From assembly GCA_028280485.1 (NCBI GenBank), contig JANQLS010000148.1:17002-81001 (forward strand): 64,000 nt of DNA, written 5' to 3'. Numbering within the stretch: the stretch's first letter is position 1; each line of letters begins with the position of its first letter. The notes beneath the pieces are model-generated. The model was not told where the DNA came from, made no database searches, and saw only the letters and a list, made by a program, of their open reading frames with translations. Made by a program: the position numbers and the translations under genes. Positions 16,716 through 46,927 of this stretch are shown piece after piece. The stretch comes from Planctomycetota bacterium (GTDB lineage: Bacteria; Planctomycetota; UBA8108; JACQVS01).

Positions 16716-17630
16716 ATGACTACACTTCTTCTACCAGAAGATCTTTCAACCGTTCATTTAGTTCCTCTCACCCCATTTACTCCCTCGAGTGAGGTGAACC
16801 TCGAAACGCATTCGATTCACATTCAACGGTTGCACCAACAGGGAATCGAAGTTTTCTTACCGGCAGCGGCCACCAGTGGGTTTTATCAACTCACTGCCAA
16901 CGAGATCAGTTCCATTGTCAAAGCCACCGTTGAAGCAACTCACGGCCAAGCCAAGGTTTTTGCTCCTCTCGGCTTAAATTTGCTGGAGGCAATTCAAATC
17001 GGGAAGCAGGCAAAAGAAGATGGAGCGACGGGAATCATGTTCATGCCCGCGACGGCTCCTTACTTAAGCGATGAAGGATTGAAAGCCTATTACATCAAGG
17101 TCATGGAAGAAGTGGGCTTACCCACATTGATCTACAAAAAGGCTGCGCTCCCCAGTAACAACTTACTTTTGATTCTTTCGGACCACAACCAACTGGTGGG
17201 AATCAAATACGCCTCTGCCGACATCGAAGCCTTCCACCAAGTCGTTCAACAAGATCAAGGACGCTTAGCTTGGCTCTGTGGGTTAGCGGAGCGGTATGCG
17301 AACGCTTTTATGGCTCAAGGCGCGGGCGGCTATACCAGTGGCGCAGGCAATCTTGCGCCCAAAACCACATTAGCCCTCCACAATGCCCTTCAAGCGGGGG
17401 ATCTTAAAGAAGCGCGTCGGCTTCAAGAGATCTTACTCCCCATCGAACGCTACCGAGGTCGAGCGGGTGATAGTTACAACGTGAGCATGCTTCAGTATTC
17501 GATGAGGCTTTTGGATGAACCCTTAGACTATGGTTCACCGCGCTTGCCCATGCGAGAACTAACTCCAGAAGAGAAGATTGAAATCGAAGAGACGTTGAAG
17601 CCGATTTTGGAATTTGAAAGGAAATTGTAG
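16716..17630 (+). CDS. kdgD: DHDPS/NAL-family lyase, most similar to 5-dehydro-4-deoxyglucarate dehydratase
   Basis: 304 aa; pattern ...GIKYASADIE...GGYTSGAGNLAP...LPIERYRGRAGDSYNVSMLQ...GSPRLPMRELTPEE parallels the KdgD C-terminal region; 46 nt downstream of garD. Confidence 0.65.
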   Translation: MTTLLLPEDLSTVHLVPLTPFTPSSEVNLETHSIHIQRLHQQGIEVFLPAAATSGFYQLTANEISSIVKATVEATHGQAKVFAPLGLNLLEAIQIGKQAKEDGATGIMFMPATAPYLSDEGLKAYYIKVMEEVGLPTLIYKKAALPSNNLLLILSDHNQLVGIKYASADIEAFHQVVQQDQGRLAWLCGLAERYANAFMAQGAGGYTSGAGNLAPKTTLALHNALQAGDLKEARRLQEILLPIERYRGRAGDSYNVSMLQYSMRLLDEPLDYGSPRLPMRELTPEEKIEIEETLKPILEFERKL

Positions 17631-17717: not shown

Positions 17718-20700
17718 TTAAATTGTCTCTCTCAAAAATGCCAACAAATCGGCCATATCCCCCAATGACATCGATTCATCCAATTCCTCAGGCATAAACG
17801 ATCTACCCTCGGTCTCCATGTTTTGAATGTCTGCTTTTAATAAGGTAATGGATTTCCCGCTAGTGTCCTTCAAATGAATACTGGTTGCGGTCTCTTCTTT
17901 TATTAATCCCTTGTACAAAATTCCACCTTTGGTAAGCACTGTATAGTCATGAAAACGAGGATCGACCGATCGATTAGGGTCCAAGATCGATTGGAGCAAG
18001 GCCTGGGGAGATTTATCCGTTAATGCTCGTAGATCAGGGCCGATGGTCGTCCCGATGTTCCCGATCTGATGGCAAGTTGAACAATTCTTTTTAAAGACAT
18101 GCGCGCCTTCCTCCCCGCTACCATTGAGAGTCACTGAAGGCCAGTAAGCAAGAACCTTGTTTCCACCGTACGACTTTGGCTGTTTTGAAAATAAAGCTTT
18201 AGCCTTCTGAGCTATTTTTTTATCTTTCCAACGTTCAAGGATTTGACGCTGGGCGAGACTGAGGTCATGAATGGACAATTGTTGATTCTCAAGCGCGGAA
18301 AGAAAGCTCTGCGTCCAATTTCCGTTTTGGGAAATGATCCTAAATAATGCGGCTTGCTGATCGGGCAAACTCTTAGCGTAGAGGCTTATGACGTCTTCAG
18401 CTTGCCCCTTCAATTGACTTAATTTCGAAGCCACTGCCAATTGGAACTCTAATTCTGAACTTTCTAGTAACCATTTCGAAAGCAGCACAACATCTCGCCC
18501 CTTGCTATGAGGAAGGGCACCCATAAGCTTCACCAAGGCAATTCGAGTGTTTAAGGAAACCTTTCCTTCCTCAATGATCTCAGGCACTCTCAGAAGGAAC
18601 TTATCCAACGCTTGCTTTATAGCTTTGAACTTGGGATCGTCCTTAGTTAAGCGATCCAACGAACTTTGGGAATGATTCAGCTTAAAAAAAATAGATTCTA
18701 AAGCTTGGAGACGCCAGAGGTCTTTCGAAGGATCCAGCTCTCCCTCGACCAGAGCTGCAATTAACTCTCGAACAACCCCCCTATTGTTTGACTTAATAGC
18801 CGTCATGAATAGCGGAGAAAACCAAGCTTCAAATACCGGCCCTTTTTCCTGAACAACGGTCCTTGAAACTCCTTTTAGATGGGGAAGGAGTGAACTCGCT
18901 ATCGCAGAACGAAGCCATGGATTTTGATAATGAAGAACGGCTAACCGCCCTAAGGCTTCAGAACATTTTGAAGATTTAAATTCTCCGAGAGTACAAGCGA
19001 GTTGTAAGATCAACTTCAAATCTGAATGGGAGACGAGCCTTACAAGCTCGTCTTGAAGACCAGCATGCTCAGGAAATTTTTCGCTCATCCTCAAAACTTC
19101 AACCACAAATTGGGCTTCTTCATAGTTGAGAGCCGCAACCAGTTCCTCAGGCTTAAGAAGGCCCCAGCCATCTCTTAAAGACAAAAGATGAAGATCCATT
19201 AGAGCATTGTGCTCATCGACGATCTCCATACTGTCGGGCTTTTTAAGGAGAAGTGTTCGGTGAGCTAAATCTCGAAGGATGCCATTACGACTCCCCAAGA
19301 GCGACACGAGATTGCTCGGAGAACCTTTTGAAAAATCCGGTATTCGGGGAGATGGACCTTCTTTAGGAAGAACTCGATAAATTCTTCCTCGCTCTTCACC
19401 CGATCGATAAAACGGCTTGAGTTCTTCTTTACCATGAGGAGGTAACCAATCAGGATGCTCGATCATATAACGATACATATCGACGATATAGAGGGCTCCG
19501 TCGGGGCCTGTTCGCGTCATCACCGGGCGGCACCAACGATCTTCACTTGCAAAAAAATCGTGCCCGTTTTTTCCGGGAACTCGCTTCGCTTTAAAACTGA
19601 CCCCGGATGAAGTGAGAACAGTATGCTGAACAATGCCGTGAAAAGGATCACAAGTGAAAGCATGAGTACGGCCATCCTTTTCGAATAAAAGGCGGTCTCG
19701 ATAAATGCTCGGGCCACAAGCTGAAGTAAATTGGGTCGCATCGGCAAAACTGTGATAACGCTTCTGAGGAAACTTAGCGGGATAGAGCTTGGAGCTGACC
19801 TTGCGAATGAGATCTTTGGCCGAAGGAGTGGGAAGATAGGGATTCCGTTTCGCGTACCGATCCTTCAAGACGTAATACCAAAGAGGACGTGAATTTTGAA
19901 CTCCGAACCACCGGTTCCAATCATCGCGCACTCGACCGAATTGAGAGGGACCGGACTCCGGTTGCATCTCCCAAGTGACGGGATTGAAGCGAATGTCACG
20001 ACTCCCGATATGAACCTTTTTACCAGTAAGAACAGCTTCGATTTGGCGTTTTGCTCCGTACCCGGCGTGATGCCCTCCACTAGCGCAATAGATCCAATTA
20101 TCTAAACCCCATCGAAGGCCGTTGACTCGAAGTTGTTGGTTCCCAGGTAAAAAACCATCGTAGAGAATGACCTCACGATCGGCCTTTCCATCATCGTTAT
20201 GATCGGGAAGGTAAATGATATGAGGCGCAGTCGTCACTAAAACACCTCGATCCCAAACCATCAAACCGTTAGGAAAACTGAGCCCTTCAGCGTAGAGCAC
20301 CGAACGATCGTAACGACCATCGCGATCATCATCCGTTAGAATCCGAATGCGCCCTCCTGGTTCGTCGCCTCCCTTCATACCATCAGGATAGTCCGCCATT
20401 TCGGCGACCCACAATCGACCTTTGAGATCCCAATCGATCGCTACGGGATCTTTTACAAGGGGTTCTTGCGCTACCAACTCTAAACGAAATTGAGGATCGA
20501 TGTGAGTGATTCGAAGAGTCTCTTCAGGACTCTTCGGTAGGGAATCCAGCTTGAGAGTTTTCTCTGAGTTCGAATTATTGGCTGACTTGTTTCCCATTCC
20601 CGAAGCTTTGAAGTGTTCGGCAGCCTCCACCGGGCTTAAAGCTCGATCGAACAGGGAAATTTCATCGAGTAAGCCTTCCAAGCCGGGTTGGTTCTTATGG

Positions 20701-22667
20701 TCTCCTCCTAACATCAACTTCGCCGTTGGGTCGGGTTTTAATTTTACAGATCCTTCTAAATCCAATTTTCCATTGAGGAAAACTCGAACAAAGTTCTTAT
20801 CGCGAGTGAATACTAAATGATTCCAGCCCTGACCGAAGGTTTGCTTCCCTTGAAGCGATCCGATGGATAGTTTCCCTAAATTTTCACTTCCACCATCGAC
20901 GATGGTTAAGAGATCCGAACCCCAGCGAAAAATTTCTCCTCGAACTTTTCGGTTATCTTTGATGACCTTATTAGAAAACCATAGCTCAACGGAATATTGA
21001 TCTTTGATTTGCTGAGCTTGAAACTCGAGCCAACCATCGATGAGATGCAAGCAACGATTGACATGTTCATTTGAGAATGCCGGAGATTGAGGACCACGTA
21101 AGTAAAAGGCGATTCTTGGCTTTACTTTTAGTTCGTTTTTATTCCCACTCGAATCACTAACGGATTCACCACGGAATTCTTCCAATCGCCAATAAGCTAT
21201 AGGTTTCTTTGACAGGATCAAAGAGGGGTAAGCTCCCTTCGAACGAACGGGAGCCCTCTCATTCTTACCGCTGACTTTTTCCAACAACTTGACAACGCTT
21301 CTCACGATGATGGGCTCCGCCTCGATCGCTAAACCCGCCGTACGGGCGGGCCAAGTATTGTACCCACCTAAGGCGTGTTGCTCGGGTGGCGGAATGTAAC
21401 CGGCAGCCCCATTTGCCAATGAAAGGTTAAAAGTCGGTTGCAGGGGACTCCGCATTTTGAGTTCAAGACCCGTTAAAGCGTAGACTTCACAAGGTATGGC
21501 GGTGATTCCCATCGAACCAATTCGAGCGGCCTGCAACACGACTTCTTCTTTTGGATTGTCTCTCAAAAAGAAAGCTTGCTCAGCGTAAACTTGAGGCCGA
21601 TTTTTGGGACGCACGTTAGGATCAGGCCAAGTCTTCTTGGCCCACTCCAATCTCTTTTCGTCGGGAAGACGACGATTAAAAGTGATTCGCTGCTCTTCGA
21701 TCCCGATAGGAACATTTTTAAAAAAGCGAATTTGCTTGTAAGCTTTCAATGATGATTCAACGAGCTCTCGAGTGTATTTGTCGATCGGAGGATTAACTCT
21801 CGGTTTCGAATAATCCCCTCTCCATAAATCTCCACTCGTCCCCTGAGAAAGAATCCCCACAAATCCCTGAGTTTCTTTCCCGAGCTCTTTTTCAATTTGA
21901 TTCGCATAACGCCCGAAGTAATCCGCTGAGAAGCCACCACCGAAGCCGAAGTAGTGCATCGAAAAGTTACCCATAAAAAATATGGGCTTTCCTTCATAGT
22001 CTCTAGCAGCCAGGATCGAAAATCCCGCATCCTCAGGTCCCGAAGGACCGACGTAATGAGGATTTTGATAGCCCGGATGCATCATCGCTTGCACGGTGCG
22101 TTCGCCGAAAGGATCCAAGTCAGGGCGTCCCACTCTACGAATCCAACGTCGATTAGCCGTGTGGTCGGGAGCTTGAAATACAGTATGCCCGACCTCAGCT
22201 GGGCGAACTCGTTTCGATGCTTCGATGATGCTTTTTGCAATCCAACCGGGTAAGACTTTGGCGTACTCAGGATCGATTCGAGTTCCTAAGCAATAATTCA
22301 TCGCGCTCGGAGCAGTATGGGTGTGAGTTGCCGAAATTAAAACGCGGTTAGGTTCTAAGCCGATCTCAGAATGAACTCTTCGCTTCACCTCATCGCAAAG
22401 AGTCCGCGGAAGCATGCAAGAATCAACAATCGCGATCGCTAATTGTTGCTTATCATTCTTAAAGTACGCCACTCGGGAATAAAGTGGGTCAGCAACTCGG
22501 TTCGTGACTCTTTCTAAAAATCCACCATTCTGGCGCGCGGGCAAGACCTTTGGGCTAATATCTTGCGAGTAGGCTCCGACTTGAATGACTCGATTGTCCT
22601 CCTGACTTAGAAGGACTGACGAGGAGCACAGAAACAGACAGATGATGATGGTCTTTTTAATGAACAT
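17718..22667 (-). CDS. Giant secreted multidomain protein: neutral-ceramidase-like N-domain + LamG/ConA-like + membrane-bound-dehydrogenase-type beta-propeller + HEAT repeats + C-terminal cytochrome c
   Basis: 1649 aa; signal peptide; SATHTHTAPSAMN (ceramidase-like); LamG-like block; PVAIDWDLKGRLWVAEMADYPDG propeller; long helical repeat region; CSTCHQIGNIG heme motif near the C-terminus. Confidence 0.6.
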   Translation of the reverse strand: MFIKKTIIICLFLCSSSVLLSQEDNRVIQVGAYSQDISPKVLPARQNGGFLERVTNRVADPLYSRVAYFKNDKQQLAIAIVDSCMLPRTLCDEVKRRVHSEIGLEPNRVLISATHTHTAPSAMNYCLGTRIDPEYAKVLPGWIAKSIIEASKRVRPAEVGHTVFQAPDHTANRRWIRRVGRPDLDPFGERTVQAMMHPGYQNPHYVGPSGPEDAGFSILAARDYEGKPIFFMGNFSMHYFGFGGGFSADYFGRYANQIEKELGKETQGFVGILSQGTSGDLWRGDYSKPRVNPPIDKYTRELVESSLKAYKQIRFFKNVPIGIEEQRITFNRRLPDEKRLEWAKKTWPDPNVRPKNRPQVYAEQAFFLRDNPKEEVVLQAARIGSMGITAIPCEVYALTGLELKMRSPLQPTFNLSLANGAAGYIPPPEQHALGGYNTWPARTAGLAIEAEPIIVRSVVKLLEKVSGKNERAPVRSKGAYPSLILSKKPIAYWRLEEFRGESVSDSSGNKNELKVKPRIAFYLRGPQSPAFSNEHVNRCLHLIDGWLEFQAQQIKDQYSVELWFSNKVIKDNRKVRGEIFRWGSDLLTIVDGGSENLGKLSIGSLQGKQTFGQGWNHLVFTRDKNFVRVFLNGKLDLEGSVKLKPDPTAKLMLGGDHKNQPGLEGLLDEISLFDRALSPVEAAEHFKASGMGNKSANNSNSEKTLKLDSLPKSPEETLRITHIDPQFRLELVAQEPLVKDPVAIDWDLKGRLWVAEMADYPDGMKGGDEPGGRIRILTDDDRDGRYDRSVLYAEGLSFPNGLMVWDRGVLVTTAPHIIYLPDHNDDGKADREVILYDGFLPGNQQLRVNGLRWGLDNWIYCASGGHHAGYGAKRQIEAVLTGKKVHIGSRDIRFNPVTWEMQPESGPSQFGRVRDDWNRWFGVQNSRPLWYYVLKDRYAKRNPYLPTPSAKDLIRKVSSKLYPAKFPQKRYHSFADATQFTSACGPSIYRDRLLFEKDGRTHAFTCDPFHGIVQHTVLTSSGVSFKAKRVPGKNGHDFFASEDRWCRPVMTRTGPDGALYIVDMYRYMIEHPDWLPPHGKEELKPFYRSGEERGRIYRVLPKEGPSPRIPDFSKGSPSNLVSLLGSRNGILRDLAHRTLLLKKPDSMEIVDEHNALMDLHLLSLRDGWGLLKPEELVAALNYEEAQFVVEVLRMSEKFPEHAGLQDELVRLVSHSDLKLILQLACTLGEFKSSKCSEALGRLAVLHYQNPWLRSAIASSLLPHLKGVSRTVVQEKGPVFEAWFSPLFMTAIKSNNRGVVRELIAALVEGELDPSKDLWRLQALESIFFKLNHSQSSLDRLTKDDPKFKAIKQALDKFLLRVPEIIEEGKVSLNTRIALVKLMGALPHSKGRDVVLLSKWLLESSELEFQLAVASKLSQLKGQAEDVISLYAKSLPDQQAALFRIISQNGNWTQSFLSALENQQLSIHDLSLAQRQILERWKDKKIAQKAKALFSKQPKSYGGNKVLAYWPSVTLNGSGEEGAHVFKKNCSTCHQIGNIGTTIGPDLRALTDKSPQALLQSILDPNRSVDPRFHDYTVLTKGGILYKGLIKEETATSIHLKDTSGKSITLLKADIQNMETEGRSFMPEELDESMSLGDMADLLAFLRETI

Positions 22668-22775: not shown

Positions 22776-24218
22776 ATGACTCGACACCAAAGTTCAATCA
22801 TTAGAAATGTGATTCTACTCCTCACCGCACTAATTTCAGTTCAAGCCACGGCGTCCCCTGAAGGTAAACGCAATTTTGTCTTTCTTTTAGTCGATGATTT
22901 AGGGTGGGCGGATACGGGTTGCTACGGCAGTACGTTCTACGAAACACCGCACATCGATCGACTCGCCGCATCGGGTACTCGATTCACCCAAGCTTACGCT
23001 GCGGGCTCGGTTTGTTCTCCCACCCGGGCGAGCATCCTCACGGGCCGCCATCCCGTTCGAGTAGATATCACCGATTGGATCCCCGGCATGGCCACAAATA
23101 GAGCAAAAACGGCAAAGTTCAAACACATCAACGATCGAGATAATCTAGCCCTGTCAGAGGTGACCATCGCCGAAGAGCTCAAAGCGAATGGCTACCAAAC
23201 ATTCTTCGCGGGCAAATGGCACTTAGGCGACAAAGGGCATTGGCCTAAGGATCAAGGTTTCGATTTCAATATTGGAGGGAACAAAAAAGGATCACCTCCC
23301 GGTGGGTACTACGCCCCCTGGACGAATCCCACTTTAAAATCAAAACACAAAGGGGAATACCTCACCGAAAGATTGACGGAAGAATCGATCAAATTTCTGA
23401 AGACTCGTAATTCGAAAAAACCCTTCTTACTTTATCTTTCGTATTACAACGTTCACACTCCGATCACTCCCTACAAAAAGCGAATCGCACATTTCAAAGA
23501 GAAAGCAAGTAAGGTTCAATCCAAGGGCACCAGCATCGACGAACACGATGGCACTTCCAAGCTCACTCAAGACAATCCCGCCTACGCTTCGATGATTCAA
23601 GCGGTCGATGACAGCGTAGGAGAATTGATGGCAGCTCTCCAATCTCAGGGCCTAGATAAAAGCACTGCCGTCTTCTTTTTTTCTGACAACGGTGGTTTAT
23701 GCACATTGAGAAAAAACCGAAGAGCCCCTACCAGCAATTTACCCCTTCGCTCAGGAAAGGGGTGGCTCTACGAAGGCGGCATTCGTGAACCCTTGATCAT
23801 CAGTGCTCCAGGAGTTGGCAAGCCAGGATCGATTTGTAAGACTCCCGTTTTCAGTACGGATTTCTTTCCCACCATCTTAGAATTAGCCGGCCTTCCCCTT
23901 AATCCTGACCTGCATGCGGATGGGAAAAGTCTATATAAACATTTATCCAATAACGAAGATAAGAGCCCACGAAGCCTCTTCTGGCACTACCCTCACTACC
24001 ATGGTTCCTCTTGGAAACCGGGTGCCGCTATTCGTGTCGGAGACTGGAAATTGATTGAGTTTTATCACTGGGAAAAAATTGAGCTCTATAATTTGGCGAC
24101 AGACCCAGGAGAAAAGAAGGATCTGTCGAAGACCCACCCCGATAAAGCTAAAGAACTTCAAAACAAACTCAAGAGCTGGCAAAAGAAAATGAAGGCGAAG
24201 ATGCCTCAGCGAATTTAA
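22776..24218 (+). CDS. Formylglycine-dependent sulfatase (secreted)
   Basis: 480 aa; [37 protein letters not shown]. Confidence 0.9.
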
Positions 24219-24222
24219 GACA

Positions 24223-24723
24223 TCAACGCTTTATATATTTTTCAAAATCAGTGTCTTGTTTAATAAAGGCCTTCACATCGTCGATCTTGCAAGCGAGTCC
24301 ACTCATATCCTTGTTGAGTCTCTGAATGGCAAGCTTGTTATCAACATTCGTAAAAATAAAGACATTGCCCTCCTGAGGATCAAAAGATGATCCTAAATAA
24401 GTAACTTTTCCAGTGACTCCATCCTTGGAGTCTACACTGAAGGTGATACGCGTTCCATCCGCTTTTTTGAGTTCCATGGTCGCATTAGCCCCCTGGTTAT
24501 TGGTGGTCAATCTTCCACTGGTGCTCGCATCGATGTCATGGAGGAGAAGGATGCTCAGCCCCCCGCTCCATTTGTAGTAAGAGAAGGCCGCTGTTCCCAA
24601 AATAGGACTCGCTGAGCAACTGTTGACGCTCGTAGCTTTTCCCCCACCCGTATTCACTCTTACATTGCAACCGAAAGTGAGCAGGGCTATAGCCATCGTC
24701 AAGGTGATGAATGTGATTTTCAT
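24223..24723 (-). CDS. Hypothetical lipoprotein
   Basis: 166 aa; signal peptide with lipobox LLTFGC; no recognisable domain. Confidence 0.4.
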   Translation of the reverse strand: MKITFITLTMAIALLTFGCNVRVNTGGGKATSVNSCSASPILGTAAFSYYKWSGGLSILLLHDIDASTSGRLTTNNQGANATMELKKADGTRITFSVDSKDGVTGKVTYLGSSFDPQEGNVFIFTNVDNKLAIQRLNKDMSGLACKIDDVKAFIKQDTDFEKYIKR

Positions 24724-24799
24724 TTTGGTTTAAGTTTCCTGAAAAGAACTCTGATTTATAAATTATGCGAAATCCTTCGACATTTTCTCAGAATCTCTA

Positions 24800-25174
24800 T
24801 CAGTCGGAGTTCCGCATAAAATTTTCAATAAATTCTACTAACGCATTTGAATTGTTGAATCGTTCCTCTTTAGAGGCGAAAACGAGGGTAACTTTATGGC
24901 TCTTAATAAGATCGAGGAGGCCTTCTAAGCCATCAACTTGATTACTGAGTTCCTCAAAATACTTGGACTTAAATTCCTCCCACTTTTCAACATCGTGTTG
25001 AAACCATTTTCGGAGTTCAGCCGAAGGTGCTAAATCCTTTAGCCAATGATCAACCTTTGCTTTTTCTTTCGACAATCCCCGCGGCCAGAGACGCTCGACC
25101 AGAATTCTTATACCGTCATCGGGTTCAGCGGGCTCATAAACTCGTTTTAATGCGATGGGGTATCTTTTCGCCAT
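24800..25174 (-). CDS. DUF488 family protein (YeaO-like)
   Basis: 124 aa; [58 protein letters not shown] matches the DUF488 consensus. Confidence 0.7.
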
Positions 25175-25181
25175 GTAAATT

Positions 25182-26654
25182 CTAAGATCGAGACCCGAAG
25201 GCCCACAAGTGCTTCGAAGACCGAAGGTAGATCTTGTTATCTACAACCGCTGGAGTAGCGTACAAGCCTTCACCGATTTGGTTGCGCTCCAAAATTTCAA
25301 ACGGACCATCCGTTGAAAGAACAAACACGGTTCCCCGTTCAGCGGGTACGAGTAATTTATCTTTCACGAGAACGGGGGTCGCGTAATACTCTCCACCTAA
25401 GCCTAATCTCTTGGCCTGGTAAAACGGCTTACCGTTTTCTGAACTGACGCATGAAATGAGCCCACCCTTCTTAACGTAGTAGACTTTTCCCTGATGCACG
25501 ACCGGAGAAGCGACATAAGGTAAGGCTCTCTTGTGTTCCCACATTACGTGAGTTTTGGTGATATTTCCCCTTCCTCCTCCTCGTATGGCAACGAGAACAT
25601 TACGACCCGGAGCGGCCTTCTGATTAAAGAAGGGTTTCATTTCAAAATCTTCCCAATCCCCATTGCGATTTTTATCGAGGTACTTGAAGACATCTCGAAC
25701 TCGACTGTCGGGTAGTTCGCTGCGCTGAATCTTCTTATCTTTATTCTTATCAAAATGATCCACGAACTTACTCAAGTCCTTGAGGACTTCCCGGGGTACA
25801 TCGGCATCGAAACCGGTAACCAAGCGCTCGTTCCCCGGTATGTTGGAGGTCGTCCAACCGCCGAAGATAAGTTGATTGCCCGACGAAACGGGTGAGGTAC
25901 AGACGAATGCCGGGAGATTCGTCACGACCCAAATTTCTTTCCCATCCTCCGCATTAAAACTTTCAAGCTTACCGGATCCCCCTACAACGATTTCGGTCAC
26001 ACCGTTTCGCTTCCAAACGTAGGGACTTGAGTAGTTCACCCCAATTTCAGGGCGAGGAACTTCCCATTTACGTTGACCCGTCTCGGCATTCCAGCAGGAT
26101 AGGGTTGACAATCCAACGACATCTCGAAGGAGATATACCGAGTCCCCATCGAGAATAGGTGAAGCTCCGAAACCAAATGGATTTTTTGCCACGGGAAACT
26201 TCTTTTCCCAAATCATTTCCCCATCGTGGTCGAGGGCGATCAAACCATAGGCCCCAAAATAAATGATGAGTCTTTTGGAATCGACACAAGGAGTGGGAAT
26301 CGCTGGAGAGGAATCTTCATGTTGAAACTCTTCTTTCCCCTGAGCCTTAAAACTCTTTTTCCAGATTTCAGATCCATCTTTTCGATTCAAGCATAAGACT
26401 TTGAGCTCGCTTTTGGCGTAAGCCGTCAAAAAGATTCGATCTTTCCAAATCACCGGCGAAGAATGCCCCGGGAGAACTTCAACCTTCCACAACAGATTTT
26501 TATTCGGTCCAAATTGAGTTGGAACATTTTGGTCGGGTGCAACCGCCAAGCCGTCGGTACCTCGGAACTGAGCCCAGCGGATGGCTTGATCTTCAGCGAT
26601 GAGGTTAGAGAAGACGAGTAGTAAGCTGGTAAGTGAAAGTATGATAATTTTCAT
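25182..26654 (-). CDS. Secreted PQQ-like beta-propeller protein with an inserted EF-hand pair
   Basis: 490 aa; signal peptide; propeller blades; internal [13 protein letters not shown] and [12 protein letters not shown] fit the 12-residue EF-hand loop consensus. Confidence 0.65.
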
Positions 26655-26672
26655 TTTTAAATTCAGTTAAAT

Positions 26673-26830
26673 AGTAGTCGGCTCAATGTAGTCCGCACGC
26701 TCTGCGTGCGGATTGTAGTCGGCTCACCCCGTGAGCCGGAAGAGCACAGCGTTACAAATCCTGGCTTAATTATGACTGATTTGCGAAGTGACTCATACCG
26801 TCCCGGCTCACGGGGTGAGCCGACTACTTT
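26673..26830. mobile_element. MITE-like element, family A (158 bp)
   Basis: agtagtcggctcaatgtagtccgcacgctctgcgtgcgga...cccggctcacggggtgagccgactacttt; inverted termini. The TAG stop of the minus-strand 995-aa gene (26824-26826) lies inside the right terminus. Confidence 0.6.
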
Positions 26831-29811
26831 AATTCTAAATCCGCCATATAAATCGCGGTAATTCGTTTCCCCTGCGCATCTTTCTCGTGCGAAGAGTACC
26901 AAGATACAACGGCTTTCCCTTCTCCGAGGTCGATGAATCCAGGATACGAATTATCTCCTGCACTCGGCAATTCGACAAAGGGATGAAGCTCACCCCGAAC
27001 AAACCACTGTAAGACGGTCTTCGGCCCTCGGGGAGTATTCTTTCGACCACCTACTACCCAACGATTTCCCCACTGGGTGATCAATGGTCCTCCAATATAT
27101 TCCTTAAGATCACGGCGTTCCCACTCTCGGTAGGGAGGCTTGGCAGTTAAAAATTCAGCCGCACTACGAGCCCTTCTCCCGATCCCCACGATGGTACCAT
27201 CGGGCAAGAATTGAAAGGCCGTTTCATCGCCATGAGTATCTTGGAAAAAACCTCTCTTTTTCCAAATCAAACCATCCTCACTTTCAAGGATGACAGATTT
27301 CACGTCAACTCCCTCCCCTTTCGGCCCCACTCTAAAACTAAATTTTCTCCGCCCACATAAGTATGCCGTACCGTTGAAAGTATTAGCCTTCCAAATGTAG
27401 TGTCCGAAAGTACCTTCTAACAAGGTGGGTGGACTCCAATTTTTGGCATCGGGAGTCCAGACGCAATAACCTAAATGTTCATTCAAATCAAAACGGGTTC
27501 TCTTCGTTCCCGGTTTCCCGTAATACCAAGTTCCTGTGTAAACGAAAAGCTTCCCCTTAAAGGAAAGAAAGTGAGGATCGCGAGTGTCTCGCTCGGGTAC
27601 TGAAAACTGGTGAACTGGACTCCAAGATTTTAAATCAGCACTTTTCAAAATAATGATACTGGCTGTGGGTTGAACTCCGTGACCATCCGGGCAACTCCTA
27701 AATGCCAAATAATAATTATTTTGATAAAGGATCAGATCCGTAAAGGCGTTGTGTTCTCCGTTGTGAAAGACTCGACGAATATTGGCGACCTTAACCTTCG
27801 GTAGATCTTTAGCTGAAAGCTTTTCGTGTCGGACGACTCGAAAACCGATCTTTGAAAGCTCTAAGGTGGGATTGCTGAAGAAACGCCCTGCAGATTGACG
27901 ATTGTTCCCTAAAAACCAAGCCCCGGAACGCAAGCCTCTAAAAATCTTTCCTACACGCGCTTCATTCCATACCCAAACATTGTTATTTACGTTTTCGAGA
28001 CCGTAGGCCGTCACCCAATTCTTAGGGTGACTCATCAAGTTGTATCCCCCGAGGAGTCGTGGGACGAACAATTGATATTTATATTTTTTATTGGAAGGAT
28101 CACCGAGGAAATAAACAGCCTTGTACCATTCGTTTTCACTTGGAAGCGAATAACGAGCGTGAACGTTTCGAGAACTCACTTGAGTCCCTTGTATTTTATA
28201 AGCTCCATCTTCAGTCGTAGCGCTGGATTGCTCGCCCTGAGGCTTTCCATTATGTAACCAGTTCGCATAACGTGCTGCATCGTGAAAGGCAACAAACGTA
28301 ACCGGAAGTTGGGCTTTGGTGTTTTTTACATAGTATTGATATTCTCCCGAGTCCCCCATTCTGAGAATGCCCCCCTGATTTGTACCCATTCTGAGATTGT
28401 ATAAACCGTTCGGGTCGCTCTTACCGACAGCGTTGAGAAAAAAAGCATATTCAGTGTTAGTGATCTGCCGCTTGGAGATGTTGAAGCAATAAGTAACATC
28501 ACCAAACACACCACGACCTTCATTATTTCGATCGGGAGAATTACCGGCATCCCCGACTCGTACAAACTCAATCGCCTGATCTTGGGGAGAGGAATGAGCT
28601 TCTAATGCTGTTTTGATGGGGATCGATCGAGAATCCGAAACGAGTTCTCGGGGTAGATCGTAAGGGGTCTTCCAAAACCGTTCTGGATTTGGAGGCGGTT
28701 TTCCAAACCAATGCCATTGAGCAAAATCTAATTGGGCCTTCCAATCTTCATCGTTAGAAGCATGCTTACCTCCGCGATAATAAAGACCATTCTTTTTGGG
28801 CACGCCATAAAGTTCAAAGACTCTGTGAGCCGCCACCGAAGTGGCTTGAGTTCCTTCTGGATTGGCGAATTCGTCATCCACAGATTCCGTACACAACAAC
28901 AGTCGAGGAGCGACCAAGGCTTTAAGAAAATGTTGATCGAAAGGTAGGCGGTCTTCCTTTTCATCAAACCACTGAATGCGTTCGTGATACCAGTGAGGCT
29001 TATCGTTCATTCCCAAGGATTCAGCTCCCGGCCCCAGCACCCGGTAAGATCCTGCACCACCAGCCCCGGAACCATTGGGAACGACCAAGGTAAACCTTTC
29101 ATCCAAGGCCCCCGCTAAAAGTGCCATCTTTCCTCCGCGAGAATGCCCAGTGATACCGATACGTTTGAGATCCACATCCTGCCGCGTTTCTAGATAATCG
29201 ATCACTCGCATGCCGCCCCACGCCCAAACCGCCAGAGTTTCCCAATCATAGTCCGAATACTTTTGCTGGGCTGGGCCTTTCACTCCCTTTCGATCTGGAT
29301 CTAAATCGTGCCGAGCGTATTCGATGAACATGAAACCCGCATCGAGAAACATCGGCACTTGACGAGTTCCTCCGAGGTGACCTTCCTCTCGAATGATCAC
29401 GGGAAGCTTTCCCTCATTTTTGGGTCGATAGATCACGATACGCATTTCGAGAGGGCGCTGAGATCCGATCTTCAGCAGAATCCAATCCTCCGTTCCCTTG
29501 CCACTTTTATGAGGGACCGATTTAATCAAAGTTCCTGTGACTTGATCTGGACGAGGAGGAATCCGACCGTACTGGTAGTAAAGGATGATCTCTTTTAGGG
29601 TATTACGCCGTTTTTCCCAAGCCTCTTGAGTGCGGATGGATTCACCCGCCTCACCCATTAAGACATCGGGTAGGTTTGGAATCGAAGGTAAATCCTCATT
29701 CGATGCTGGGGGTTGCCATACCTTCTCCTCACTCGCCGTTGAAAGTGTGGTGATAGAACTACAGAGAAAGATGAACAAGAGGCTTAGTATATAAGACTTC
29801 AACGAGGACAT
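26824..29811 (-). CDS. Secreted three-module protein: CE15-like (glucuronoyl-esterase-like) alpha/beta hydrolase + FGE/SUMF1-like domain + BNR/sialidase-like beta-propeller
   Basis: 995 aa; signal peptide; GITGHSRGGKMALLAGALD (GxSRxG esterase motif); central ...RYSLPSENEWYKA...GAWFL... FGE-sulfatase-type domain; C-terminal propeller with repeated W/D-rich blades. Confidence 0.55.
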   Translation of the reverse strand: MSSLKSYILSLLFIFLCSSITTLSTASEEKVWQPPASNEDLPSIPNLPDVLMGEAGESIRTQEAWEKRRNTLKEIILYYQYGRIPPRPDQVTGTLIKSVPHKSGKGTEDWILLKIGSQRPLEMRIVIYRPKNEGKLPVIIREEGHLGGTRQVPMFLDAGFMFIEYARHDLDPDRKGVKGPAQQKYSDYDWETLAVWAWGGMRVIDYLETRQDVDLKRIGITGHSRGGKMALLAGALDERFTLVVPNGSGAGGAGSYRVLGPGAESLGMNDKPHWYHERIQWFDEKEDRLPFDQHFLKALVAPRLLLCTESVDDEFANPEGTQATSVAAHRVFELYGVPKKNGLYYRGGKHASNDEDWKAQLDFAQWHWFGKPPPNPERFWKTPYDLPRELVSDSRSIPIKTALEAHSSPQDQAIEFVRVGDAGNSPDRNNEGRGVFGDVTYCFNISKRQITNTEYAFFLNAVGKSDPNGLYNLRMGTNQGGILRMGDSGEYQYYVKNTKAQLPVTFVAFHDAARYANWLHNGKPQGEQSSATTEDGAYKIQGTQVSSRNVHARYSLPSENEWYKAVYFLGDPSNKKYKYQLFVPRLLGGYNLMSHPKNWVTAYGLENVNNNVWVWNEARVGKIFRGLRSGAWFLGNNRQSAGRFFSNPTLELSKIGFRVVRHEKLSAKDLPKVKVANIRRVFHNGEHNAFTDLILYQNNYYLAFRSCPDGHGVQPTASIIILKSADLKSWSPVHQFSVPERDTRDPHFLSFKGKLFVYTGTWYYGKPGTKRTRFDLNEHLGYCVWTPDAKNWSPPTLLEGTFGHYIWKANTFNGTAYLCGRRKFSFRVGPKGEGVDVKSVILESEDGLIWKKRGFFQDTHGDETAFQFLPDGTIVGIGRRARSAAEFLTAKPPYREWERRDLKEYIGGPLITQWGNRWVVGGRKNTPRGPKTVLQWFVRGELHPFVELPSAGDNSYPGFIDLGEGKAVVSWYSSHEKDAQGKRITAIYMADLELK

Positions 29812-30107
29812 TTCGAAACTTTCAATGTTCAGTATTTGTGGATTGCTGTTCTTCTGTCAGTAACCAAAAAGAGTGAAACCATCATCATGTTCAGATTCAG
29901 AGGGAGAATCAAGCTAAATGGCTTCCCAGAAGCACCCTCAAAGAAAAGTATTTTATTTCTTGCTTGTCGTTGATTCCCTTGCCACTATTGTCGCCTACTT
30001 CTTCGTATTTATTACTTTAAAAGGGTTTTAAGCTAAAGATCGAAGGAAGAGCTAAAACCCTTGTTAAAGCTGTAAAAGCTAGGAATTATTCAGCAGAGGA
30101 ACACGAA

Positions 30108-30344
30108 ATGGCGCAACGTAAAAAAAGAGCCCAACGAGACATCGAAAAAGATTATCCTAAAAAACAATTCATCGCAAAACTACGTCGCTTGGCGGATTGC
30201 CTGGAGGAAGGAAAACGCTTCCGTATCCAGGTAGCGGGTGAACGAGTATCGGTGGCCGCCGATTCCACCATCAACATCGAGCACGAACGATCTTCCTCAG
30301 AGGAAGAAATTGAGTTTCAATTGCGTTGGAAATTAGATGAATAG
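30108..30344 (+). CDS. Small protein resembling the amphi-Trp domain family
   Basis: 78 aa; FIAKLRRLADCLEEGKRFRIQVAGERVSVAADSTINIEHERSSSEEEIEFQLRWK fits my recollection of the amphi-Trp consensus. Unverified. Confidence 0.35.
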   Translation: MAQRKKRAQRDIEKDYPKKQFIAKLRRLADCLEEGKRFRIQVAGERVSVAADSTINIEHERSSSEEEIEFQLRWKLDE

Positions 30345-30454
30345 AGGCTAACGAACCAAATTCTGGCGCATAGCAAAAGACGCCAGCCATTTGGTGATTA
30401 CACTTTAAAATTTCTTGATCCAAATTCTGGCGAATTTGGCTACGGGCGAATTCT

Positions 30455-31033
30455 ATGGACGATACTCAAAATTTAAATCTTCCTAAGCGACTAAAAGACA
30501 TCGAAGAAGACACCCAGTCTCATGGATTTTCGATGGCCTCCGACCATCAAACCGGCTCCTTTCTACGAACTCTAGTTGCAAGTCGTCCGGGGGGCCAAAT
30601 CTTGGAACTCGGAACGGGTACGGGTTTAGGAGCGTGTTGGCTTCTCGATGGAATGGATAGCCAATCACATTTGACCACGGTCGATGATGATGCTGAAGTC
30701 GTAGAGATCGCCAAAAAACATCTTTCACTAGATGGTCGTATCACTTTCCACGTCAAGGATGGATCCGAATTCTTAAAAGGAGCCCAAAAAGATAGCTTTG
30801 ACCTGATCTTTGCTGATACTTGGCCGGGAAAGTACTGGGACCGAGAATTGACCTTCGACCTCTTAAAAAAAGGTGGGATCTATATCGTCGATGATATGCT
30901 CCCCCAAGAAAACTGGCCCGAAGAGCACTTCCCTAAAGCGAAAGAACTCGTTCAAATCTTGGAGAATCAAAAAGGCTTTAAAAAGACCAAACTCAATTGG
31001 TCTACCGGGATAATAATTTTAGTCAAAGAATGA
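30455..31033 (+). CDS. Class I SAM-dependent O-methyltransferase (family 3-like)
   Basis: 192 aa; ILELGTGTGLGACWLL SAM-binding motif I; DLIFADTWPGKY. Confidence 0.7.
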   Translation: MDDTQNLNLPKRLKDIEEDTQSHGFSMASDHQTGSFLRTLVASRPGGQILELGTGTGLGACWLLDGMDSQSHLTTVDDDAEVVEIAKKHLSLDGRITFHVKDGSEFLKGAQKDSFDLIFADTWPGKYWDRELTFDLLKKGGIYIVDDMLPQENWPEEHFPKAKELVQILENQKGFKKTKLNWSTGIIILVKE

Positions 31034-32142: not shown

Positions 32143-32889
32143 GTGAATCTTCAAGGAGATTACGAACCCCCAATGAAAAACGAAATCACAATCGGCATCA
32201 TCGGAGATTTCAACCCCGACAACCCATTCCACCAAGCGACCAACGCGGTCATCGAAACCGCGGCGCGACTGAAATCTATCCCACTTAATTTTGAATGGAT
32301 TCCAACGGAGAGCCTAGAATCCTTTGACAAAGAATCGCTACTAAAATCTTTTCAGGGTTTCTGGTGCGCACCCTCAAGCCCTTACGTCAGTTTTGAGGGT
32401 GCCCTCAACGCAGTTCGTCTGGCCCGCGAATCTGGATGGCCCTTTATAGGGACGTGAGGCGGATTTCAGACGGCTCTGGTAGAGTACGCAAGAAATGTTT
32501 TAAATATCGAAAACGCCGAGCACGAAGAATCATCTCCCGATGCCGAGCGCTTAGTGGTTTCGAAATTAACTTGTTCGTTAAAAGATGTAGAGGGGAAGGT
32601 CTTCCTGAGCCCCGGCACTCAAGCCCGAGAAATTTACGGTAAAGAGGAATCCAAGGAATCGTTTCGGTGTAACTTCGGTTTGAACCCTAAGTACTTTCCT
32701 GCATTTGAAGAAACTTCATTTCGATTTTCAGGAAAAGATGAAGATGGCGCCCCTCGACTGATGGAACTCACCGATCATCCTTTTTATATGGGCACTCTCT
32801 TTCTGCCCCAGATTCGATCGGATGCTTCATATGTGCATCCGATTATCGATGCATATGTGGATGCTGTGGTAGAGAGCGCTAAGCGTTAA
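32143..32889 (+). CDS. CTP-synthase C-terminal-domain-like (class-I glutamine-amidotransferase-like) protein interrupted by one in-frame TGA (32455-32457) at the predicted nucleophile Cys position; candidate selenoprotein or point-mutation pseudogene
   Basis: ORFs 32143..32457 and 32554..32889 are in the same frame and separated only by the TGA. The joined product reads ...GWPFIGT-U/*-GGFQTALVEYARNVLNIENAEHEE..., paralleling the CTP synthase GATase GICLGMQVALIEYARNV motif, with ...DHPFYMGTLFLPQ at the HPE position. Confidence 0.5.
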
Positions 32890-33757
32890 AAGATTCAAAG
32901 AGTGTCCCCTTAACGGGAACTCGCGCTCGAAACAATCCGCCCGCATGAGGCTGCTCTTGGAGTTGCTCAGAAGTCATTCGGTCTCGAGCGGTCGTGATAT
33001 ATAGATCGTGAAGATCCTCACCACCGAAAGCACAAGCGGTGACATGAGCTGAGGGCACAGGAATTTGACTTAAGATCGATCCTGATAATGGATCGTATCG
33101 AATAACCTGAGATCCACCCCACATTCCGACCCACAGCTTATCTTCAACATCGATCGCCATTCCGTCTGGAAAACCCAAACCGTCTTCCACTTTGACTGCA
33201 GTTCGACGATTTGAGATTTCACCCGACTCTAAATCGTAATCAAAGGCATCGATTCTCTTCGTGGGGGAATCGATGTAATACATAGTTTTTGAATCAGAAC
33301 TCCACACAATACCGTTTGAAACTGAAATATCTTGAACGTGTTTTTTAACCTTACCGTCACCGTCCAATGAATACAAAATTCCATGGCCAGGGTCTTCTAC
33401 CTTCGACATGGTACCCGCCCAAAATCGTCCTTTGGGATCGCACTTACCATCATTAAAGCGATTAGTAGAAATATGGCTCTCAGGATCAGCAAGCCGTTTT
33501 AGGGTCTGGGTTCCAGGGTCAAACGAAGCGAAACCATTTTCTAATGCTAAAGCCACTCCCCCTGATCGTTGAAGCACAACTGTACCGACGGCTTCTCCAA
33601 TTTGAAAAACGTCATCGTTTTCGGATTGGGGGTCGAACCGGTGTAATTCCCCAGCAAAGATGTTGACCCACCACAGAACCTTTGCATCGGGATCCCAAAG
33701 GGGTCCTTCCCCCAATATGGCTTTAGAGTCTAAAACAAGTTCAACTTCAGTCGGCAT
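32879..33757 (-). CDS. SMP-30/gluconolactonase/LRE-family lactonase
   Basis: 292 aa; ILGEGPLWDPDAKVLWWVNIFAGELHRFDP; six-bladed propeller hallmarks. Confidence 0.85.
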   Translation of the reverse strand: MPTEVELVLDSKAILGEGPLWDPDAKVLWWVNIFAGELHRFDPQSENDDVFQIGEAVGTVVLQRSGGVALALENGFASFDPGTQTLKRLADPESHISTNRFNDGKCDPKGRFWAGTMSKVEDPGHGILYSLDGDGKVKKHVQDISVSNGIVWSSDSKTMYYIDSPTKRIDAFDYDLESGEISNRRTAVKVEDGLGFPDGMAIDVEDKLWVGMWGGSQVIRYDPLSGSILSQIPVPSAHVTACAFGGEDLHDLYITTARDRMTSEQLQEQPHAGGLFRARVPVKGTLFESFNA

Positions 33758-33758
33758 C

Positions 33759-34562
33759 TCAATCTTCAGCCACCACTGGATTCTCTAAATCGCCGATCCC
33801 TTCAATGGAAATCGTCACGTTATCCCCAGGCTTCAAGAATACTGGAGGTTTTCTTGCAGCACCGACTCCATGAGGGGTTCCTGTAAGGATGAGAGTTCCC
33901 GGTAAGAGCCTCGTTCCGGCGCTGAGAAATTCAATAAGAGTAACGACATCAAAAATCATATCGTTCGTCTTCCAATCTTGCATCGTCTCTCCGTTAAGAA
34001 CCGTTTTGATTCCTAATGATTGAGGATCCGTGATTTCATCGGAAGTCACCAAGCAAGGGCCGATCGGACAGAATGTGGCGAAGGTCTTTCCTCGACACCA
34101 TTGCCCTCCACCTCCATTTTTTTGCCAGTGTCGTTCGCTGACATCGTGGGCGCAGGTATAACCCAAGACGTAATCCAATGCATCTTCCTTAGAAACGTTG
34201 TAACATTCCTTCCCGATGATCACTCCGAGCTCACATTCGAAATCGACGGTTTCACATTTCAACTTACTGGGAATGATGATGGGATCACCTGGATTTTGAA
34301 GCGCCCCGACATTCTTCATAAAGAGAACGGGAAATTCAGGATGGGGCAAACCACTTTCATCGGCGTGATGACCGTAGTTTAAACCGATGCACAAAATATC
34401 GGTGGGAACGATGGGAGCTAGAAGCTTGGCGACATCCGCAGCCTCTCCTGAATCGGAATACTCTCCGTAGATATCTCCGTTCAAGCGCGTCGCTGAACCA
34501 TCGTTCTGTTGACAACCGTAATGGATCTCTCCGGAGGCATCTTGATATCGAATGATTTTCAT
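33759..34562 (-). CDS. Fumarylacetoacetate hydrolase (FAH) family protein
   Basis: 267 aa; ILCIGLNYGHHADE...VDFECELGVIIGKEC...LILTGTPHGVG; 1-nt spacing to the lactonase gene (operon). Confidence 0.85.
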   Translation of the reverse strand: MKIIRYQDASGEIHYGCQQNDGSATRLNGDIYGEYSDSGEAADVAKLLAPIVPTDILCIGLNYGHHADESGLPHPEFPVLFMKNVGALQNPGDPIIIPSKLKCETVDFECELGVIIGKECYNVSKEDALDYVLGYTCAHDVSERHWQKNGGGGQWCRGKTFATFCPIGPCLVTSDEITDPQSLGIKTVLNGETMQDWKTNDMIFDVVTLIEFLSAGTRLLPGTLILTGTPHGVGAARKPPVFLKPGDNVTISIEGIGDLENPVVAED

Positions 34563-46851: not shown

Positions 46852-46927
46852 GTAGCAAAAGACGCCAGTCTTTTGGGGAATGCGCTTCAAATACGTTCCT
46901 CGCCAAAAGACTGGCGTCTTTTGCTAC
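46852..46927. repeat. Perfect 25-bp inverted repeat hairpin (repeat family C) between convergent genes; probable bidirectional terminator
   Basis: GTAGCAAAAGACGCCAGTCTTTTGG (46852-46876) ... CCAAAAGACTGGCGTCTTTTGCTAC (46903-46927). The sulfatase stop (46924-46926, reading TAG on the minus strand) lies within the GTAGC end of the right arm. Confidence 0.7.

Follow-up and report, generated by a model that had tools for sequence, protein, structure and literature searches.

What a bacterium might do with an esterase, a sulfatase-modifying-factor fold and a sialidase-like propeller on a single secreted polypeptide is the question raised by a 64,000-nucleotide stretch of a Planctomycetota genome (assembly GCA_028280485.1, contig JANQLS010000148.1, positions 17,002 to 81,001; hereafter the window), the reverse strand of which carries a gene for a 995-amino-acid (aa) protein. 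Our preferred reading, to which we give about an even chance, is a secreted bifunctional enzyme comprising a uronoyl esterase from family 15 of the carbohydrate esterases (CE15) and an exo-glycosidase of the sialidase clan, with a binding or scaffolding module between them that has the formylglycine-generating enzyme (FGE) fold and lacks its cysteine pair. An earlier note, made from the letters alone, had described a secreted three-module protein at this position; its coordinates proved exact, the N-terminus resembles a signal peptide, and all three domain calls were correct, including the one for the propeller, a module that goes undetected by every Pfam model. The features of the protein and of the surrounding DNA are collected in Table 1.

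The window protein is identical to one entry of the public protein collection, P0001 (P numbers denote proteins and L numbers loci), and two further proteins from other samples, P0002 (63% identity) and P0003 (56%), have the identical module order with all key residues kept. Given that these two share both architecture and key residues, neither mis-assembly nor a frameshift explains the fusion. The junction does fall where mature standalone propellers begin, as the read-through of two neighbouring genes would give, but it is hardly credible that a mis-assembly, or a sequencing error erasing the stop codon between neighbours, made the three-module frame: the architecture is seen in three independent samples at 56–68% identity, with frames intact and the junction conserved, no signal peptide lies between the modules of the three fused proteins, and a separate Logan assembly yielded the identical protein. 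No second copy of the CE15, FGE-like or propeller module was found in the window. At the N-terminus, the Kyte-Doolittle mean reaches 2–2.75 across the hydrophobic core, STA|SE follows (MSSLKSYILSLLFIFLCSSITTLSTA|SE) and there is no lipobox, all of which is consistent with a Sec signal peptide, the cleavage site of which we placed by eye. Hydrophobic N-termini are also present in P0002 and P0003.

The N-terminal module is assigned to CE15 by Pfam (GCE_fung, PF22244; E = 7.8e-38, 131 bits against a curated cut-off of 27). In a PDB sequence search it matched about 20 solved CE15 structures with E-values of 1e-16 to 4.5e-40, headed by CkGE15A (7nn3, 4.5e-40), OtCE15A (1.2e-38) and the marine MZ0003 (8.4e-38). 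In OtCE15A, S267 is the nucleophile, R268 the oxyanion residue and H408 the catalytic histidine, K271 contacts O3/O4 of glucuronate and W358 its O2, and the acids are E290 (canonical) and D356 (non-canonical) (PMC6937553). The motif GHSRGG (residues 222–227), in which the earlier note had recognised the GxSRxG signature of glucuronoyl esterases, aligns to S267/R268, and mapping the remaining positions gave a complete predicted triad of Ser224, His350 and Asp313, accompanied by the oxyanion Arg225 and by Lys228. The acid is thus at the non-canonical position, while the canonical E290 aligns to Gly247, where an acid is absent. W358 aligns to Phe315, and E305, another uronate-binding residue of OtCE15A, aligns to P261, with an invariant E264 three residues off, a register that is uncertain. 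Ser224, Arg225, Lys228, Asp313 and His350 are invariant across 35 family members. Because the triad, Arg225 and Lys228 are all kept and invariant in this way, the esterase is very probably active, with a bacterial-type active site that uses the non-canonical acid.

The middle module had been likened to the FGE/SUMF1 fold, and here the family profile, the AlphaFold model and Foldseek agree. PF03781 matches the whole protein at E = 1.4e-11, above its cut-off and spanning only profile positions 36–122 of 255, and the FGE-like segment searched alone at E = 2.8e-13. A single-sequence PDB search with this segment returned noise only; a 20-sequence family profile reached SUMF2/pFGE at 1e-5, followed by OvoA, EgtB, CarF and several FGEs. 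The AlphaFold model (predicted local distance difference test score, pLDDT, 84; predicted template modelling score, pTM, 0.87) matched only FGE-superfamily folds in Foldseek, each with a probability of 1.00 (CarF, FGE, TvpA, pFGE, PvdO, EgtB, ToxD and PorK). At the position of the Cys-x4-Cys of the FGE active site lies a subfamily-specific loop with the consensus WFxGNN(R/K)QxAG(R/H), with invariant W, G, N, N, Q and G and with cysteine in 0 of 20 family members; in the window protein, its pLDDT is below 50. The only cysteine of the module, C442, is not conserved. The earlier note had raised the question of whether the pair needed for formylglycine formation is kept; it is absent from the window protein and from all 20 family members, and as this pair binds the copper, the module is predicted to be unable to generate formylglycine. 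The cysteine of an RYCNW motif, present in 16 of the 20 family sequences, is alanine at residue 516 (28264–28266) in the window protein and valine in P0003, and is thus dispensable.

A profile search with the FGE-like module retrieved thousands of standalone relatives of ~330 aa with signal peptides, the nearest it has outside proteins that contain CE15. Among those inspected, PEP-CTERM-like tails were present in 63 of 110, the equivalent stretch was free of cysteine in 88 of 102, and the GNNxQ motif was found in 8 of 120. By these sequence features, the module falls within a clade of exported superfamily members predicted not to make formylglycine. Its database names, ‘formylglycine-generating enzyme’ and ‘nonheme iron enzyme’, derive from the fold and are probably wrong as descriptions of function. 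This standalone secreted FGE-fold family is very large, and the label that its members carry (P0396–P0509), ‘formylglycine-generating enzyme required for sulfatase activity’, is likely to be a systematic misannotation.

The C-terminal module matched none of the Pfam and NCBIfam models (for BNR_2/BNR, none at E ≤ 1), and weak BNR_2 matches occur only in some distant members of its family. A search with the propeller alone recovered 2604 proteins, mostly of 350–375 aa, ~65% identical and without a Pfam domain, and an exhaustive representative search gave 1524 family representatives at E ≤ 1e-3. The standalone members carry their own signal peptides; the propeller of the window protein is one copy from this family, which is very large, highly conserved and made up mostly of standalone secreted proteins. 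The description of this module as a BNR-type propeller therefore needs amending: a propeller it is, not a generic BNR one, but a member of this family with a remodelled sialidase-type site. In a fold search, 5hx0 scored highest (33.6), followed by about 23 sialidase-clan enzymes (25–31), which include GH33 sialidases, a KDNase, trans-sialidases, a GH93 arabinanase and a GH58 endosialidase, with lectins and generic propellers at no more than 22.6 and the GH143 protein BT_1020 at 19.8. The propeller has the fold of the clan of glycoside hydrolase family 33 (GH33), with six-bladed sialidase topology. A profile of close homologues (A2) reached only 5hx0 in the PDB, and a diverse profile (A5) reached 5hx0 at 1e-12, the pseudaminidase PA2794 at 3.9e-5 and the Porphyromonas gingivalis sialidase PG0352 at 7.6e-5. 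With hhalign, the family aligned to the GH33 domain in the N-terminal half of P0246 with 88.9% probability (E = 2.4e-6, 253 columns). A place in GH143, represented by the N-terminal DHA-hydrolase propeller of BT_1020, was considered and rejected, as neither a match to PF24067 nor a closest similarity to 5mqs was obtained. Likewise, profile A2 showed no relationship in hhalign to the BNR_2 domain of the CE15-BNR_2 fusion P0107, which makes these different propeller families.

Three degenerate Asp-boxes (S-x-D-x-G-x-x-W) are present at residues 724–730, 786–792 and 844–850, the first of which aligns to a canonical Asp-box. In PG0352, Glu-382 is the general base and Arg-398 the second arginine of the tri-Arg motif (PMC10553830). 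Glu863 and Arg879 of the window protein align to these two residues, respectively, as well as to the SEC...TAR of a canonical GH33 domain. Within the propeller family, sampled down to ~28% identity, Glu863 and Arg879 are each conserved in 49 of 49 members and Tyr956 in 48; on these alignments, the propeller keeps the GH33 equivalents of all three. The remainder of the site differs. The stretch HNAFTD takes the position of the sialidase (Y)RIP motif in a manual register based on the LAF strand and Asp-box spacing relative to the N-terminal half of P0246 and to 5hx0 (‘HAAFPS’); it falls outside the hhalign alignment. H687 is conserved in 49 of 49 and A689 in 48 of 49. D709, which aligns to the acid/base Asp of the canonical GRKD, is present in 52 of 52 members of the close family and in 9 of 49 of the wider one, and D692, D742 and D745 are alternatives. 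Arg705, His711, Asp742, Arg744, Asp745, His975 and Glu976 are also near-invariant, and these extra residues suggest a remodelled, still cationic pocket. Taken on its predicted site, the propeller probably adds a second catalytic centre to the protein and is not just an accessory.

Members of the propeller family have been fused independently to SGNH/GDSL esterases (P0244, P0308, P0364 and P0388), an S9/BD-FAE alpha/beta-hydrolase (P0241), PL10 pectate lyases (P0243, P0282 and P0316) and canonical GH33/BNR_2 domains (P0246, P0250 and P0368). In the tandem protein P0246 (723 aa), a GH33 sialidase with YRIP, five Asp-boxes, SEC...TAR and QYSSM stands beside a propeller of the new family, P0250 and P0368 being similar; such tandems suggest complementary specificities on one substrate. 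Neighbours of propeller-family genes include BNR_2 and GDSL genes (L089-91), an HpcH/HpaI aldolase with a sulfatase-S9 fusion (L086-88), a SASA esterase (L085), and a PL9-like beta-helix protein with BD-FAE (L084). On the esterase side, CE15 relatives are fused to canonical BNR_2 propellers (P0107, P0109 and P0110), a sulfatase (P0115) and heparinase-II/III-C (P0113). Across P0108, P0112-P0115 and P0117, we noted fusions of CE15 with sulfatase, heparinase II/III-C, GH127/DUF1680, GDSL, phosphodiesterase, and PQQ with cytochrome c; this modular diversity of marine CE15 fusions did not appear in the literature we found. The theme common to these associations, we infer, is an esterified polysaccharide of uronic or other acidic sugars that is partly sulfated. 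This agrees with the opinion of the authors of MZ0003 that lignin esters are unlikely substrates at sea (PMC4951047), and with CE15 enzymes in the pectin loci of Bacteroidota, which appear to act on terminal or branching uronic-acid esters of unidentified nature, not on backbone methyl esters (PMC10807430). The proposal in the earlier note of a composite enzyme for sulfated or uronic-acid-bearing glycans is thus plausible from fusion partners and neighbours, although the sulfatases on which it leaned are only loosely nearby.

In the bifunctional enzyme that we propose for this marine planctomycete, a two-module unit of CE15 and the Cys-less FGE fold would have been joined to a copy of a standalone sialidase-type propeller exactly at the mature N-terminus of the latter. 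The substrate would be an anionic polysaccharide of algae or microbes, probably a sulfated one: the CE15 esterase would take an ester off one of its uronic or other acidic sugars in a terminal or branching position, and the propeller, as a retaining exo-glycosidase, would then remove the acidic sugar itself. We infer that the FGE-fold module would bind substrate or scaffold for the CE15 domain. The carboxylate-binding side of the propeller would be remodelled, with His687/Ala689 replacing the RIP arginine and Arg705, His711, Arg744 and His975 conserved, so that its substrate is probably not classical N-acetylneuraminic acid (Neu5Ac). Several observations weigh against this proposal. The esterase has Phe315 in place of the tryptophan that contacts glucuronate O2 in OtCE15A. 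In the propeller, the first arginine of the sialidase triad is replaced and the assignment of the third arginine and of the acid/base Asp is ambiguous, and its catalysis could differ or be absent. In the FGE-like module, the GNNxQ loop, which is invariant, might point to a catalytic or metal site instead. Two of five sampled contexts of standalone propellers have no theme of carbohydrate-active enzymes (CAZymes), and planctomycete neighbourhoods are loose. Finally, in about 50 genomes with the CE15-FGE pair, a propeller lies nearby only in L042 (28% identity), so the two activities are not generally co-localised. The Rosetta-stone idea that the CE15-FGE gene and a standalone propeller gene are usually neighbours was accordingly rejected, L042 being the only one of 80 species-representative loci where they lie within 10 kb.

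The main rival to the bifunctional enzyme concerns the propeller, which might be a non-catalytic, lectin-like targeting module that brings CE15, then the only catalytic centre, to an acidic glycan. We regard this rival as unlikely. Less probable again is a third enzymatic activity in the FGE-like module, such as a metal-dependent oxidation, directed at the glycan or at whichever alcohol or aromatic group the esterase sets free. An activity of this kind is suggested by the name given at NCBI, ‘SUMF1/EgtB/PvdO family nonheme iron enzyme’; the module is the constant companion of this CE15 clade and is strongly conserved (invariant NWLHNG, TTEDGAY, EDEWYKAAY and WFxGNNxQ), and its invariant loop sits exactly at the FGE active-site position. 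However, the Cys pair for Cu(I) is missing, that same loop is predicted to be disordered, the best PDB sequence match is SUMF2, a non-catalytic paralogue, and the closest relatives are PEP-CTERM surface proteins without a conserved cysteine. The iron ligands of EgtB and OvoA reside in their DinB domain, which is also absent here.

A further rival takes the CE15 module at face value, as a classical glucuronoyl esterase acting on lignin-glucuronoxylan esters of terrestrial or seagrass debris, with the other modules as accessories. Its best PDB matches are indeed bona fide glucuronoyl esterases (CkGE15A and OtCE15A), and the glucuronate-binding Ser/Arg/Lys residues are kept. Against this, the relatives come from pelagic marine metagenome-assembled genomes (MAGs; TARA and ALOHA), no xylanase or xylan-related gene lies within the window, the fusion partners indicate polyuronates, sulfated glycans and sialidase-type chemistry, Trp358 has become Phe, and the doubts of the MZ0003 authors about lignin esters at sea (PMC4951047) apply here as well; we consider this reading distinctly improbable.

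The two N-terminal modules form a widespread and undescribed unit. The CE15+FGE pair (620–680 aa) accounts for at least 95 clusters among the top matches and is carried by about 50 of the 80 species-representative loci, and the two modules are kept together in larger multidomain proteins (P0039, P0048, P0060, P0080 and P0096), with partners including CotH/EF-hand and 3-keto-disaccharide-hydrolase. The three-module form was found in only three clusters (P0001, P0002 and P0003) among ~5.8 billion. The remark in the earlier note that the domain order is not recognisable from any described enzyme thus stands as far as the rarity of the full form is concerned, but the CE15+FGE pair is common and CE15-BNR_2 fusions exist (P0107, P0109 and P0110). 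A literature search found nothing relevant on CE15 with FGE/SUMF, on 5hx0/Dfer_1899, or on sialidase-like propellers with esterases in Planctomycetes. Identity between the fused proteins, three in all, is 60–71% in the CE15 module, 49–56% in the FGE-like module and 60–68% in the propeller, far above the 23–33% of the linker, and all three modules are therefore under purifying selection.

In standalone propellers, the residues with which the mature protein starts, once the signal peptide ends, match the junction DLP(K/R)V (e.g., P0122, ‘...SDLPKVRVSNIRR’); on fusion, therefore, the upstream gene lost its stop codon and the propeller its signal peptide. In neighbour-joining (NJ) trees, given here without support values, the three fused proteins group together in their CE15-FGE halves, as an exclusive clade among 85 proteins, which points to one origin of the fusion as read from these halves. 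The propeller halves do not form a clade (NJ); that of P0002 is 85% identical to standalone P0122 and only 64–68% identical to the other fused copies, a pattern that hints at later fission, gene conversion or repeated fusion. As the fused propeller is ~65% identical to standalone copies, and that of P0002 85% identical to P0122, it has evidently kept the ancestral function.

Compared with known bacterial CE15 enzymes (7nn3, OtCE15A 6syr and MZ0003 6ehn), the esterase shares the alpha/beta-hydrolase domain, GxSRxG, oxyanion Arg, uronate-binding Lys and catalytic His, and with CkGE15A (CkXyn10C-GE15A), it shares a non-acidic residue at the canonical acid position and an Asp at that of OtCE15A D356. 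The clade of the window protein differs in having Phe for Trp358, in the FGE-fold module that always follows, and in its origin from pelagic marine Planctomycetota and Verrucomicrobiota. As in the multi-catalytic CE15-GH8 protein of Bacteroides eggerthii (PMC8417218) and Xyn10C-GE15A (PMC8280721), CE15 shares a polypeptide with a glycan-cleaving module, and the fusion protein belongs among such multi-catalytic CAZymes and is not categorically new; the partner here, however, is a sialidase-clan propeller and not a xylanase, and the FGE-fold module replaces a classical carbohydrate-binding module. In its extracytoplasmic FGE fold without the Cu-binding Cys pair, the middle module resembles SUMF2/pFGE (1y4j), PvdO (5hha), PorK/GldK (9p6h) and TvpA (2y3c), from which it is set apart by the invariant WFxGNN(R/K)Q loop and the covalent link to an esterase.

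The propeller is only 10–17% identical to GH33 enzymes (NanA 2vvz, PG0352 8feb, Neu2, KDNase 4m4n and PA2794 2w38) and, unlike them, has no BNR_2 match, carries Ala689 for the RIP arginine together with the invariant His687, and has extra invariant residues (Arg705, His711, Asp742, Arg744, Asp745 and His975). Dfer_1899 of Dyadobacter fermentans (5hx0, from structural genomics) combines detectable sequence similarity with the closest structural similarity, yet is no more than a distant relative. SASA/SGNH esterases act with GH33 enzymes in sialic-acid catabolism, where an ester block is removed before an exo-glycosidase acts on the acidic sugar. The fusion or adjacency of the propeller family to SGNH/GDSL and SASA esterases resembles this partnership of sialidase and sialate-O-acetylesterase; since CE15 hydrolyses carboxyl esters of uronic acids, not O-acetyl groups, the ester chemistry in the window protein would differ.

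The window is planctomycete-like in its gene content (PSCyt1/2/3, PSD1-5, DUF1501 and DUF1552 genes), and close relatives of the protein all belong to MAGs of Planctomycetota or Verrucomicrobiota, many of which were recovered from marine samples of TARA or ALOHA. The count of five sulfatases in the earlier note was roughly right (four PF00884 sulfatases and one DUF1501 gene), although they are scattered over the 64 kb and form no operon with the fusion gene, the nearest being on the opposite strand, and for these reasons a ‘sulfatase locus’ was down-weighted as the main functional argument. A PQQ_2/BamB-like EF-hand gene directly downstream keeps its position in L085 (12322–13824) and L002 (10230–11606), whether or not the propeller is fused, and may or may not be functionally linked to the fusion gene. 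Synteny between the window, L085 (P0003) and L002 (the two-module P0005) comprises a CotH-LTD giant protein, an SSF symporter, a fumarylacetoacetate (FAA) hydrolase, an O-methyltransferase, the CE15 gene, PQQ_2, DUF488 and a sulfatase. We also noted sugar-acid or deoxy-sugar catabolic genes near the fusion gene, namely the gluconolactonase-FAA-hydrolase pair and the pair of a dehydratase with a member of the dihydrodipicolinate synthase (DHDPS) family. A promoter and terminator scan of 24000–30600 was at chance level and uninformative on operon structure.

Table 1. Features of the 995-aa protein and of its neighbourhood (positions in the window; residues of the protein).
Feature	Residues	Position	Strand	Basis or remark
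Whole gene, 995 codons and stop		26824..29811	(-)	Open reading frame list; stop codon 26824-26826; ATG start
Signal-peptide-like N-terminus MSSLKSYILSLLFIFLCSSITTLSTA	1-26	29734..29811	(-)	Hydrophobic core residues 7-20
CE15 carbohydrate-esterase module	~40-385	28657..29694	(-)	Pfam and PDB matches
GHSRGGK: putative nucleophile Ser224, oxyanion Arg225, uronate-binding Lys228	222-228	29128..29148	(-)	Aligned to OtCE15A S267/R268/K271
Asp313-Glu314-Phe315; Asp313 as putative non-canonical catalytic acid	313-315	28867..28875	(-)	Register against OtCE15A D356/W358
Putative catalytic His350	350	28762..28764	(-)	Aligned to OtCE15A H408
Linker 1	386-415	28567..28656	(-)	23-33% identity among the three fused proteins; modules at 50-71%
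FGE-sulfatase-fold module without the catalytic Cys pair	~416-662	27826..28566	(-)	PF03781, profile, model
WFLGNNRQSAG, subfamily-specific loop at the FGE Cys-x4-Cys position	632-642	27886..27918	(-)	SUMF2 C-terminal alignment
Linker 2 and fusion junction EKLSAKDLPKV	663-673	27793..27825	(-)	DLP(K/R)V kept in all three fused proteins
Sialidase-type six-bladed beta-propeller	674-995	26827..27792	(-)	
HNAFTD at the (Y)RIP position; Ala689 where the first catalytic Arg would be	687-692	27736..27753	(-)	Manual register
Glu863 ... Arg879, putative equivalents of the GH33 general-base Glu and second tri-Arg Arg	863-879	27175..27225	(-)	PG0352 and canonical GH33 alignment
Arg923, candidate third Arg	923	27043..27045	(-)	48/49 conserved; strand B of blade 5; not placed on the canonical third Arg by hhalign
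Tyr956, candidate catalytic nucleophile	956	26944..26946	(-)	GDNSYPG aligned to GDNQYSS of canonical GH33 domain
PQQ_2 beta-propeller/EF-hand gene, directly downstream after a 170-bp gap		25182..26654	(-)	PF13360 E=1.7e-19 and EF-hand matches
PQQ_2 paralogues in the window, four		7714-8982, 25182-26654, 45560-46834, 53870-55177		
PF00884 sulfatases, four		1109-2521, 22776-24218, 46924-48225, 52071-53465		
DUF1501		3870-5258		
SMP-30/gluconolactonase and FAA-hydrolase, adjacent pair		32879-33757, 33759-34562	(-)	Pair conserved in L001; FAA-hydrolase also in L085
Altronate/galactarate dehydratase and DHDPS-family pair		15131-16669, 16716-17630	(+)	
1445-aa LTD-Laminin_G-CotH giant secreted protein		39505-43842	(-)	Syntenic in L085 and L002
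1649-aa Laminin_G-DUF7133-cytochrome c giant secreted protein		17718-22667	(-)	

The natural substrates of marine CE15 enzymes are an acknowledged open question, as lignin-glucuronoxylan esters are scarce at sea (PMC4951047), and marine Planctomycetota and Verrucomicrobiota carry many CE15 genes. The fusion of a CE15 module with a predicted intact catalytic site to a sialidase-clan propeller focuses the search on polyanionic glycans that bear esterified acidic sugars. Members of the propeller family turn up repeatedly alongside pectate lyases and alongside esterases of three unrelated folds. Two large families also come to light as misnamed or missed, namely the CE15-linked, Cys-less FGE-fold modules and the conserved secreted propellers without a Pfam model. 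A bolder and rather doubtful extension of our reading is that the propeller, with its thousands of standalone relatives, constitutes, within the sialidase clan, a new family of glycoside hydrolases or lyases, for which CE15 frees the carboxylate of the very residue to be removed (an ‘ester-gated’ exo-glycosidase), the FGE-fold module being a new kind of glycan-binding module. The propeller site, with His687/Arg705/Arg744 instead of the RIP arginine, would then target a carboxyl-esterified or lactonised acidic sugar from marine algal or bacterial glycans, and CE15 would free the carboxylate needed by the Arg/Tyr/Glu machinery of the propeller. If true, this ester-gated reading would identify the physiological substrate class of marine CE15 enzymes.

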